64,000 bases of DNA from assembly GCA_024762875.1 (NCBI GenBank), contig JANTGR010000002.1, forward strand, positions 191-64,190. The letters are read 5' to 3'. The position numbers and the translations under genes were made by a program. Below the pieces are notes generated by a model. The model was not told the origin of the DNA. It searched no databases and worked only from the letters and a program-made list of their open reading frames with translations. Of the stretch, positions 8,360 through 53,011 are shown in pieces (the stretch's first letter is position 1; the number at the start of each line of letters is the position of its first letter). This DNA is from Sulfurospirillum sp. Its GTDB lineage: Bacteria > Campylobacterota > Campylobacteria > Campylobacterales > QNZT01.

Positions 8360-8448
8360 AAAGTGTTGTATATTTTACTTATTCACTAAGATTGCACTGT
8401 AAAACGGCTGCAGAGTCATGCACAACTAGACATTGTTTAGAACACTTT
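8360..8448 (+). repeat. REP/MITE-like intergenic element, copy A (degenerate arms)
   Basis: Core TTCACTAAGATTGCACTGTAAAACGGCTGCAGAGTCATGCAC (8382-8423) is about 85% identical to the cores at 27518-27560 and 30699-30739 (reverse complement). Short flanking inverted repeat AAAGTGTT / AACACTTT. Confidence 0.7.
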
Positions 8449-26353: not shown

Positions 26354-26430
26354 GGGTCTATAGCTCAGTTGGTTAGAGCACTCGGCTCATAACCGAGTGG
26401 TCCCAGGTTCGAATCCTGGTGGACCCACCA
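26354..26430 (+). tRNA. tRNA with CAU anticodon, elongator Met (tRNA-Ile2/lysidine not excluded)
   Basis: GGGTCTA TA GCTC AGTTGGTTA GAGC A CTCGG CTCATAA CCGAG TGGTC CCAGG TTCGAAT CCTGG TGGACCC A CCA folds as a 77-nt cloverleaf with encoded CCA. It has neither the three G-C anticodon-stem pairs nor the 1:72 mismatch of an initiator. Confidence 0.9.
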
Positions 26431-27474: not shown

Positions 27475-27492
27475 CTAAACTCCTTTATTGGG

Positions 27493-27586
27493 ATTGCATG
27501 TTCTGAACAACACACTTATTCACTAAGGCTGCGCCGTAAAACGGCTGTAGAGTCGTTCACAAGTGTGTTAGTTCAGAATATGCAAT
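27493..27586 (+). repeat. REP/MITE-like intergenic element, copy B
   Basis: Arms 27493-27517 and 27561-27586 are complementary except for one G:T and a 1-nt bulge. Core ATTCACTAAGGCTGCGCCGTAAAACGGCTGTAGAGTCGTTCAC contains the hairpin GCCGT-AAA-ACGGC. Confidence 0.8.
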
Positions 27587-30637: not shown

Positions 30638-30669
30638 TATTTATCCATTTTTAGTATTGTCTGTTCTGT

Positions 30670-30768
30670 CAATAGTATGTTCTAAGCATGCATATTTTTG
30701 AACGACTCTACAGCCGTTTTACGGCGAAGCCTTAGTGAAAAAGTATGCATGCTTAGAACATACTATTG
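30670..30768 (-). repeat. REP/MITE-like intergenic element, copy C (core inverted relative to copy B)
   Basis: The 29-nt arms 30670-30698 and 30740-30768 are complementary at 28/29 positions. The reverse complement of core 30699-30739 differs from the copy B core at one position. Confidence 0.8.
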
Positions 30769-30880
30769 ATATTTCACAAGAGTTGTCAGCAAAGAGCATG
30801 CCAAATCTTTTAAAAAATTAAATTATTTGAATTATTGTAGCAAAATTGTATTTTAATTAATATTAATGTAAAATATTTAA

Positions 30881-31154
30881 TTAAGGGTACCTCTAAAAAC
30901 CCTGGTTATTCAAAACATCACAAGCTTTGCCTTAGGCAAGGCGTTTACTTGCAGGACTAGCTGTAGCTAATGCAAAAGTAAACAACGAAGCATAAGGCAA
31001 AGCTTGTGATGCCCGCAGGGTGGGCTTAGAAGAAGTAACCTTTACAAAGATATTTTCTCATCTTAGCTTCGGCTAGGATTTCAAAAATCTCTTTGTAAAT
31101 CTCACCTCTTCTAAGCCCATTATGAACAACCAGGGTTTTTAGAGGTACCCTTAA
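30881..31154 (+). other. 274-nt nested-palindrome element (candidate structured RNA leader or MITE) upstream of ftsW
   Basis: Perfect 27-bp terminal inverted repeat TTAAGGGTACCTCTAAAAACCCTGGTT (30881-30907 / 31128-31154) encloses two long hairpins. The first has stems 30916-30934 / 30993-31011. The second has stems 31022-31033 / 31107-31118 and 31041-31050 / 31090-31099, and its tip CTTAGC-TTCG-GCTAGG is at 31062-31077. Confidence 0.7.
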
Positions 31155-31193
31155 AAACTAAGAGCATCATCAAACAAAAAGGTACTTTCAACT

Positions 31194-32354
31194 GTGACAA
31201 CAGACAAAACACTCTTTTATCTTACTATTACACTGATAACCATTGGGATCATTTTCTCCTATTCGTTAACGACGTATATCTCAGGTTTGTATCATGTCAA
31301 TGAATTTTATTTTTTCAAAAAACAGTTGATTGCAGGAAGTGTGGCGATCTTTTTGATGTGGTTTATCTCACAGCTGAATCCGGACAAAGCATTTAAACCC
31401 CTGGGTTTTTTATTTTTTGGTCTTTTTTTATTTTTGATGACGAGTATGCACTTTCTTCCTGCTTCTTTGGTCACAGAAGTAGGCGGTGCAAAGCGTTGGA
31501 TCAAGCTGCCTGGTATATCACTGGCCCCTGTAGAGTTTTTTAAAGTGGGTTTCGTTTTTTTTCTGGCTTGGAGTTTTTCGAGAAAAATTCAACATCACAA
31601 ACAGAGTCTCAAAGAGGAGGTGATTACTTTTTCCCCTTATGTTGGAGCATTTTCTGTGGTGGTTTATTTGATTGCAATCATGCAAAATGACCTGGGACAG
31701 GTGATTGTTCTGGGTTTGACCCTGGCGATTATGGCATTTATGGCTGGGACAAGTGCACGATTTTTTATGCTGGCGACTTTTTCTGCGATTACTGTTTTTA
31801 TAGTGGCGATTGTGACTTCGGATCATCGTATCCTGCGTATCAAACTCTGGTGGAGTAATATTCAGGATTTTATTCTCTCTTTTTTGCCACATTCTCTGGC
31901 AGCCACACTGCGCGTGAAAGATACCATCGAACCCTATCAGATATCGAACTCTTTTTATGCGATTAAAAATGGTGGTTTTTTGGGAGAAGGGGTTGGAAAT
32001 GGTACGATTAAACTGGGGTTTTTGACAGAAGTGCATACTGATTTTGTACTGGCAGGGATGGCTGAAGAGATCGGTATTGTTGGACTGAGTGTAGTAATCG
32101 GGCTTTTCTTTTTTATGGTATTTAGGATTTTCAAGATTGCCAACCGTCTGGAAAACAAGATGGAGTCACTCTTTGTTATGGGGATTGGGCTGATTATCTC
32201 TCTGGCATTTTTTATCAATGCCTATGGTATCACGGGTATCACACCGATCAAGGGTATAGCCGTGCCACTTCTCAGTTACGGAGGGTCATCTTTGGTGGCG
32301 CATGCTGTGGCAATCGGAATGGTATTGATGTTGAGTAAGAAGGTGAGATTATGA
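31194..32354 (+). CDS. ftsW: SEDS-family cell-division protein FtsW
   Basis: 386 aa with GTG start, polytopic. Its stop overlaps the murG start (ATGA). Confidence 0.85.
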   Translation: MTTDKTLFYLTITLITIGIIFSYSLTTYISGLYHVNEFYFFKKQLIAGSVAIFLMWFISQLNPDKAFKPLGFLFFGLFLFLMTSMHFLPASLVTEVGGAKRWIKLPGISLAPVEFFKVGFVFFLAWSFSRKIQHHKQSLKEEVITFSPYVGAFSVVVYLIAIMQNDLGQVIVLGLTLAIMAFMAGTSARFFMLATFSAITVFIVAIVTSDHRILRIKLWWSNIQDFILSFLPHSLAATLRVKDTIEPYQISNSFYAIKNGGFLGEGVGNGTIKLGFLTEVHTDFVLAGMAEEIGIVGLSVVIGLFFFMVFRIFKIANRLENKMESLFVMGIGLIISLAFFINAYGITGITPIKGIAVPLLSYGGSSLVAHAVAIGMVLMLSKKVRL

Positions 32355-52540: not shown

Positions 52541-52640
52541 ATTTAAACCTAATGGTAAGTTGTGTGATATTATATCCAATTGCAAATGAAAGTTATCATG
52601 ATAAGTTGATTGTTAGCTATTTACAGCGCATCAAATAAAA

Positions 52641-52977
52641 AGGCATAGCGATAAGCCGAGTTCTGTCGTGGATGATTATTTATCTCTAAATTATCTTACG
52701 ATAATCCTCTAGCGAAGTGCGAAATTATAAGAGTTATACCATACACTTCTTGCTGCAGATTGGGTTTACCTAGCTGGTAAGATTGCTCAAACCACTGGTG
52801 AGCTCTTACCTCACCCTTTCACCGTGACTCCCGATTTCTTTCATGAAAATCGATAAGCCGTCTTCTCTCTGTTGCACTGGCCCTCAGGTTGCCCTGGCCA
52901 TCTGTTAGATGGAATCCTCTCTTATAGCAGCCCGGACTTTCCTCTATCATGATAGATAGCAATCATCTACTATGCCT
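52641..52977 (-). ncRNA. rnpB: RNase P RNA, bacterial type A
   Basis: The minus-strand read contains GAGGAAAGUCCGGGCU, GGUGAAAGGGUGAGGUAAGAGCUCACCAG, AGGUAAACCCAA and ACAGAACUCGGCUUAUCG. P1 pairing is GGCAUAG (5') with CUAUGCC (3'). Confidence 0.9.
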
Positions 52978-53011
52978 CACCTGTATTATAGCATATTTTT
53001 TTACTGTTTTC

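Follow-up and report, generated by a model that had tools for sequence, protein, structure and literature searches.

A palindrome upstream of ftsW in a Sulfurospirillum-like bacterium, very probably an inserted IS5-family miniature transposable element

The stretch of 64,000 nucleotides analysed here (the window, positions counted from its first letter) belongs to Sulfurospirillum sp. contig JANTGR010000002.1 and carries, between flgB and ftsW, a 274-nt palindrome (30881-31154) that is very probably a transposable element of the miniature inverted-repeat kind (MITE), of type II and of the IS5 family, inserted in the ftsW leader region. The genes to its left, flgB-flgC-fliE and a gene for a penicillin-binding protein, lie on the minus strand and those to its right, ftsW-murG, on the plus strand. 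The start codon of ftsW is a GTG at 31194, the repeat ending 39 nt upstream. No open reading frame (ORF) of at least 60 aa is found between flgB and ftsW, hence none within the element. Relatives of FtsW assign the window to the Campylobacterales, and there to a Sulfurospirillum-like member.

The palindrome is closed by a terminal inverted repeat (30881-30907 / 31128-31154) that is perfect over 27 bp and reaches 35 nt at 94% when extended. The initial annotation took this repeat as the boundary of the element; the repeat holds but the limits do not, since the outer TTAA on each side (30881-30884 and 31151-31154) lies outside the element as a target-site duplication, the 4-mers on the two sides being the same in 30 of 53 delimited family members. 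The element proper covers 30885-31150, which is 266 bp. Its left terminal repeat (30885-30915, plus strand) has an outer part of about 19 nt, GGGTACCTCTAAAAACCCT, conserved in sequence and common to IS5-family insertion sequences (ISs), and an inner part of about 12 nt in which only the pairing with the right end is conserved. In the terminal stem (helix 1), 13 pairs are invariant and 11 are changed on both sides. The right terminal repeat (31120-31150, minus strand) is identical in an independent Logan contig, L001. Hairpin A (30916-31011, plus strand) has a perfect outer stem of 19 bp (30916-30934 / 30993-31011) and an inner stem, with an internal loop in which CAAGGC / AACGAAGCA is conserved, and its tip has the form TAGC-N4-GCTA. 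It is followed by a junction mini-hairpin, CCCGCAGGG (CCC-GCA-GGG, 31012-31020, plus strand), which lies inside a conserved TGCCCnnAGGG, and then by hairpin B (31021-31119, plus strand), whose outer stem has 13 bp, whose inner stem is interrupted and whose tip, TAGCTnnGGCTA, is invariant. Stems of hairpin B are found at 31022-31033 / 31107-31118 and 31041-31050 / 31090-31099, and in the window its tip reads CTTAGC-TTCG-GCTAGG (31062-31077). All the stems, the mini-hairpin and the UUCG tip are thus present at the positions where they had first been described. The minimum free energy is -143.7 kcal/mol for the plus strand (z = -16.8) and -157.5 kcal/mol for the minus strand (z = -19.8), and none of 200 shuffles folds as well as the element, so that the fold far exceeds chance on both strands. 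The possibility that the stems were copied from, or target, nearby sequence was rejected: their longest matches elsewhere in the window do not exceed 12 nt.

The termini led to the assignment of the element to a transposon family. Searches were made with a 23-mer in species-representative genomes and with the 18-mer GGGTACCTCTAAAAACCC in metagenomes and viral contigs. The 18-mer has no match in the viral contigs and 114 loci in the metagenomes; pairing of its plus- and minus-strand matches shows that 57 of these hold inverted pairs delimiting elements. Short elements fall in classes of 90-335 bp, including a tight class of 262-267 bp that contains the window copy, and long elements measure 1198-1359 bp, each with one ORF of 315-347 aa. 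The products of the long elements match Pfam DUF772 and DDE_Tnp_1 as well as the NCBIfam model NF033581 'IS5 family transposase', the latter with 295 bits for a cutoff of 140. Their closest annotated plasmid relative is the 'IS5 family transposase' WP_026805439.1 (51.7% identity) of Aliarcobacter faecis plasmid pAFAEC (NZ_CP053838.1), encoded in an IS of 1279 bp with the same termini (GGGTACCTCTAAAAAC...) and the flanks ATAT/ATAT. The outer 19 nt or so of the termini essentially never vary in the 266-bp class and are presumed to be the transposase site. The 4-mers that flank the termini agree between the two sides in 30 of the 53 delimited elements and differ by one mismatch in 10 more, compared to 1-2 of 53 in shifted controls, and the duplications comprise 17 different 4-mers with the consensus T-T-A-A. 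Because the two flanks agree far more often than in the controls and their sequence varies between copies, the TTAA of the window is a 4-bp target-site duplication. Short elements also occur together on one contig, at 4024-5260 of L027 (141 and 335 bp) and at 5697-6043 of L058 (123 and 141 bp), which suggests local clustering of MITEs of this superfamily.

The genomic setting shows where the insertion took place. On its left is a conserved flgB-ftsW control block of about 95 nt (30786-30880) that, in a three-species alignment, stops exactly at the insertion point. A sigma-54-type motif, TGGCAT-N5-TTGCT (30786-30803, minus strand), faces flgB and is kept in contigs L002 and L003 of the two relatives; a -10-like TAAAAT (30869-30874) faces ftsW and reads TAATAT in L003 and TAAACT in L002. 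Both assignments are our reading of the sequence, a simple promoter scan of the block reporting solely a minus-strand sigma-70-like TTTACA-16-TACAAT at 30872..30845. On the right, the remainder of the native ftsW leader (31155-31193, plus strand) retains an intact AAGG ribosome-binding motif. In L003, whose FtsW is 77% identical, the conserved block continues straight into the ftsW leader and the site is empty, whereas at the same point of the window TTAA-(266 bp)-TTAA is interposed between block and leader. L002, from a related Sulfurospirillum metagenome-assembled genome (FtsW 84% identical), has there a different palindrome of about 134 nt (positions 1361-1494) with perfect arms of 32 nt (TGATTGAGCCTTATGTATGTTAAGCGTTCAAC...), positioned within about 3 nt of the focal insertion. 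Since L003 is empty and L002 differently occupied, the element is an insertion, and the comparison points to a hotspot for palindromic elements just downstream of the conserved flgB-ftsW block. The insertion is no assembly artefact of the window, because its right end is also present in an independent assembly: contig L001 of Logan SRR19843167, the only other public contig encoding an identical FtsW, has an identical right end of the element at the same site (L001 1-38 corresponds to 31117-31154). This contig breaks at 31117, where hairpin B adjoins the terminal repeat, a suggestive position that would fit the presence in that sample of variants of the element or of more of its copies.

The element is assigned to the MITEs because it is small and non-coding, shares its termini with other elements, is bounded by a duplication of fixed length and variable sequence, has an empty counterpart site and exists in dispersed copies. 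A MITE with a TTAA target-site duplication had been the second choice of the initial annotation, and the IS5 termini, the variable 4-bp duplications, the dispersed copies and the empty site bring it to the first place. The long elements have what is expected of an IS5-family partner (DUF772 and DDE_Tnp_1, a size of about 1.2 kb, a 4-bp duplication); that such a partner mobilises the MITE is what we infer. Several points weigh against this assignment. The exact 23-mer terminus has no match in species-representative genomes, and the window holds neither a further copy of the terminus or of the element nor an IS5-type cognate transposase; with one copy and no transposase in 64 kb, activity and multiple copies of the element in the source genome are conjectural. 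Internal deletion of an IS finds no support as its origin, the interior being unrelated to the non-coding ends of the long ISs. Nine long copies were compared, whose non-coding ends have no hairpin modules and nothing in common with the MITE beyond the termini; the interior was on this ground rejected as an IS deletion remnant. Because of this lack of hairpin modules in the long ISs the element is classed as type II, a MITE sharing the termini alone with its IS. The ftsW promoter has a putative position, deduced from conservation and from the -10-like hexamer. Finally, the strong covariation and the invariant loops described below exceed the needs of a purely selfish unstructured MITE.

The first choice of the initial annotation was a dedicated structured RNA of the plus strand, whether as a cis-regulatory 5' leader for ftsW-murG or as a non-coding RNA in its own right, a reading that we now hold to be very improbable. 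It accords with the location of the element between a conserved promoter-like block and the ftsW ribosome-binding site and with a very stable fold with strong covariation. The tip-B pair (alignment columns 184:197) is moreover always standard in the plus orientation (6 U:G, 6 A:U, 2 G:U) and the hairpin A outer stem has 27 G:U versus 2 A:C in that orientation. However, the site has no element in L003 and a different palindrome in L002, the other copies of the element adjoin unrelated genes in every orientation, and transposon termini with a target-site duplication are present. The argument for the plus strand had been drawn from a U:G wobble and a UUCG loop at the tip of hairpin B, and it does not survive comparison of strands and copies. 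The minus strand of the window copy folds 13.8 kcal/mol better than the plus strand and has 6 G:U pairs versus 1, while UUCG is found in the window copy only, the other 13 copies having UAAG, UAUG, UUUG, UACG or UAUA. The stems of the 266-bp class are about 92% Watson-Crick with few wobbles. In the window-plus orientation, G:U and A:C amount to 65 versus 27 cells and to 27 versus 19 alignment columns, many of the cells being inherited within sub-lineages, and for 9 of the 14 copies the opposite orientation is the one of better fold energy. Orientation relative to neighbouring genes is random: the 13 full copies occupy divergent, convergent and tandem contexts, the tandem ones being co-directional with the host genes twice and opposite to them three times, and when the short elements are taken together, the strand that folds better is co-directional in 12 and opposite in 9 (4 versus 6 in the strongly asymmetric subset). 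Wobble counts, per-strand energies and gene orientation being inconsistent, a strand-specific RNA signal in the 266-bp class was rejected. The simple promoter scan reports no promoter-like site inside the element. Since energies, loop, orientation and promoter scan give no support, an RNA gene or leader selected on the plus strand is unsupported.

Rfam 15, whose curated families span riboswitches, leaders, sRNAs, ribozymes, retron msr and, where included, bridge/omega RNAs, was searched with the window at gathering score, with the region at E values up to 10 and with 14 sibling loci, and none of the three scans gives a match of the element at or near the gathering score, in agreement with what had been surmised from the sequence. 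The sub-threshold matches are eukaryotic microRNA-precursor models only, which reflect the generic shape of a long hairpin, and membership of a known RNA family was rejected. The only gathering-score matches in the window are a bacterial class A RNase P RNA (244 bits, 52636-52978, minus strand) and a tRNA (26354-26427, plus strand).

The 266-bp class has at least 19 copies on different metagenome contigs with unrelated flanks, several of these contigs being from a single metagenome, Ga0256840. They have a low GC content (31-42%) and weak paralogue matches, which are insufficient for host taxonomy. Fourteen copies (13 full-length and one partial, 52-96% pairwise identity) were oriented and could be aligned from end to end; the 13 full-length copies are all intergenic, in unrelated contexts, and element length is constrained to 262-267 bp. 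RNAalifold recovers the same three-way architecture from the 14 copies. Standard pairs occupy 96.7% of cells, compared to 76.9% in shuffled alignments and 34-49% with partners slid 1-3 columns out of register, and the covariation score is 0.547 versus 0.18 (shuffled) and 0.07-0.13 (slid). Two-sided changes that keep the pairing affect 56 of the 98 base pairs. Compensatory changes are found in 16/19 outer-stem and 8/9 inner-stem pairs of hairpin A, and in 11/13 outer-stem and 8/15 inner-stem pairs of hairpin B. From one sub-lineage to another there is complete turnover of the terminal stem's 12 inner pairs and of almost every pair in hairpins A and B; the outer stem of hairpin A, for instance, reads ACAAGCTTTG/CAAAGCTTGT in the window copy, ATAGCAAATA/TGTTTGCTAT in L024 and AGAGAGGAG/CTCCTCTCT in L040. 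Several unpaired strings vary little or not at all: TGCCCnnAGGG at the junction, TAGCTnnGGCTA at the B tip, TAGC-N4-GCTA at the A tip and CAAGGC / AACGAAGCA in the internal loop of A. The bases of the B tip are the same in 14/14 copies around a variable loop, and the junction mini-hairpin (helix 5) is nearly invariant in the 14 aligned copies.

A covariance model built on hairpin A recovers all copies of the class together with five additional ones (L017, L047, L084, L113, L120), the copy in L047 being a 228-bp variant; its match in L068 is partial, ended by the end of the contig. The model also matches L009, a member of the 161-nt class with the same termini, with 37 bits and on one strand only, the loop there being CAAGGCG / CAACGCAG. 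Because it finds the single hairpin of this class, hairpin A is a module common to size classes. Hairpins A and B share the TAGC..GCTA tip, and the model matches B on the opposite strand, but their similarity is not above that of shuffles and B was rejected as an inverted paralogue of A.

The three-way fold, as judged from these alignments, appears to be a family trait and not a local adaptation. Copies at 92-96% identity have 5-11 one-sided stem changes, about half of them pair-breaking, whereas lineages at 80-83% identity have 8-14 pair-keeping two-sided changes and 0-2 broken pairs, with about one expected by chance on our own estimate. This contrast between young and old copies would be the pattern expected if inserted copies decay neutrally and propagating lineages are filtered for an intact fold. 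We favour the hypothesis that the fold serves most likely the propagation or the tolerability of the element itself rather than the regulation of ftsW, and that it is probably selected in a single-stranded state, RNA or DNA.

A different explanation keeps the MITE but removes selection on the fold, its arms being held complementary by recombination, gene conversion or template switching at quasi-palindromes. In L018 (1454-1549), hairpin A shows an in-place inversion with respect to the termini and to hairpin B (reverse-complement score 75 versus 36); recombination between palindrome arms thus occurs at the DNA level, and stems that are about 92% Watson-Crick, with few wobbles, look as if one arm had been copied from the other. 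We consider unselected maintenance unlikely, since the many pair-breaking one-sided changes of the young copies imply that homogenisation is not fast, the loops, tips and junction are invariant despite complete turnover of the stems, and the length is constant at 262-267 bp. Arm copying cannot create, either, the G:U pairs and the strand asymmetry of siblings of 158-162 nt that have the same termini (L009, L036, L045, L055, L063, L067, L101, L118). In these siblings one strand is favoured by 15-37 kcal/mol and has 7-10 G:U pairs versus 0-3 on the other. A mixed alignment of these classes is of qualitative use only, as it is too heterogeneous for firm pair counts. Their favoured strand is not co-oriented with neighbouring genes. 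Such asymmetry combined with random orientation is not accounted for by read-through transcription or by arm homogenisation.

The same siblings, and the A loop and tip common to size classes, are the basis of a stronger form of selection, to which we give a comparably small chance: a structure-dependent MITE, in which the three-way fold would be a functional RNA or a transient single-stranded DNA needed in cis for propagation. The hairpin A module might then recruit an IS5-type transposase or a host factor, or unite the ends of the element, and this would replace the picture of a passive pair of transposase-binding sites.

The resemblance of hairpin A to the single hairpin of L009, at 37 bits and on one strand only, could also be understood if the element were a composite built by nested insertion, hairpins A and B having once been separate elements inserted into, or captured between, IS5-type termini. 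In line with such an origin, a further hairpin-repeat family, its core conserved and its stems variable, is present in the genome, and the Logan contig stops precisely where hairpin B adjoins the terminal repeat. It is nevertheless improbable: there are no duplications around hairpin A or B, A has no significant similarity to B read in reverse complement, and the A-junction-B order and the length are constant in 14/14 copies, so the event would pre-date the class.

The other hairpin-repeat family is present in the window at 30669-30769, at about 27484-27577 and at 8376-8444, two copies being intact and the third degenerate. The two intact copies have in common a core of about 45 nt, GAACGACTCTACAGCCGTTTTACGGCGnAGCCTTAGTGAA, with a GCCGT-TTT-ACGGC mini-hairpin, and their stems are perfectly paired over 27-31 bp, with completely different sequences. 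No IS5-type termini and no obvious target duplication are found in this family. The copy at 30669-30769 separates the sigma-54-like promoter from the start of flgB, within the flgB leader, and is not found in L002 or L003. This palindrome and the L002 insert were rejected as members of the focal family, or as relatives of each other, for want of significant similarity.

Coming back to the inserted IS5-type MITE, its history can be proposed as follows. An IS5-family DDE transposase, supplied in trans, would recognise the termini GGGTACCTCTAAAAACCC, excise the element and paste it into an AT-rich 4-bp target (consensus TTAA) that would be duplicated in the process. The element landed at the edge of the flgB-ftsW block, about 7 nt past the -10-like TAAAAT and 39 nt before the ftsW start, leaving the ribosome-binding site intact. 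If ftsW is transcribed from the block, the start would fall within a few nt of the insertion and the element would form the first 270 nt or so of the ftsW-murG mRNA, tightly folded. Its terminal duplex of 27-35 bp would be a plausible substrate of RNase III, by analogy with the Correia elements. The element may well be transcribed in the ftsW leader, which would be a consequence of the insertion and would not argue for a dedicated RNA gene; nothing suggests its recruitment for control of ftsW, and the relatives manage without it. In lineages that propagate, the fold would be preserved by compensatory changes, while single inserted copies would decay by one-sided changes.

An odd palindrome before an essential cell-division operon thus finds its explanation in a transposon insertion and not in a regulatory RNA, and ftsW-murG probably carries here a large folded leader that relatives lack. 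The searchable literature has no description of this MITE family, nor of any MITE in Sulfurospirillum or related genera. The superfamily is apparently undescribed and consists of IS5-type MITEs of low-GC environmental bacteria with structured interiors, compensatory change and invariant loops. The unusual feature of the element is its very clean covariation with invariant loops, along with a hairpin module common to size classes; it is otherwise ordinary in kind. The superfamily offers a convenient natural data set to study whether, and why, MITEs mobilised by DDE transposases need a fold. For annotators, it shows that an RNA gene and a structured mobile element are not separable by covariation alone.

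Among known systems, ERIC, RUP, BOX and other small palindromic repeats of enterobacteria or streptococci can influence how stable their carrier mRNAs are. They are like the present element in being intergenic imperfect palindromes that fold as RNA, but they have no sequence similarity to it, a comparison that covers their general descriptions (PMC10969869) and the negative Rfam scans. IS200/IS605 and REP/BIME elements have sub-terminal hairpins, neither terminal repeats nor duplication, and depend on TnpA(Y1)/RAYT; they are excluded because the family studied here has long terminal inverted repeats, a duplication and a DDE transposase partner. The Correia elements of Neisseria (CREE/NEMIS) are MITEs of 100-200 bp with terminal inverted repeats of about 26 bp, often located just upstream of genes; they are co-transcribed and their terminal duplex is cut by RNase III, inversion has been reported, and they show a TA duplication, an IHF site, outward promoters and more than 120 copies in the N. 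gonorrhoeae genome sequence (PMC10969869). They are the best model for the possible effect of the insertion on the ftsW mRNA. The element described here is nevertheless no Correia element, as it has a 4-bp duplication, IS5-type termini and no promoter-like site in the scan. Type II MITEs of the IS5 family are known, for example, from Porphyromonas gingivalis (BrickBuilt/ISPg1) and from Neisseria (ATR/ISNme1; PMC4596501). Like BrickBuilt and ATR, our element is short, non-coding and intergenic, has only the terminal repeats in common with IS5-family ISs, is predicted to form long stem-loops and contains no transposase remnant (PMC4596501). It differs by its terminus (GGGTACCTCTAAAAACCC instead of GAGACC...), by a clean 4-bp duplication where that of BrickBuilt is variable or absent, by having no internal minisatellite, and by its defined three-way fold, in which compensatory change is extensive and the loops are invariant. 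The IS of pAFAEC, in a comparison that covered the termini only, differs from the MITE in its 1279 bp, its transposase gene and its residence in another genome; with the same termini, a 4-bp ATAT duplication and a host of the Campylobacterales, it represents a candidate type of autonomous partner.

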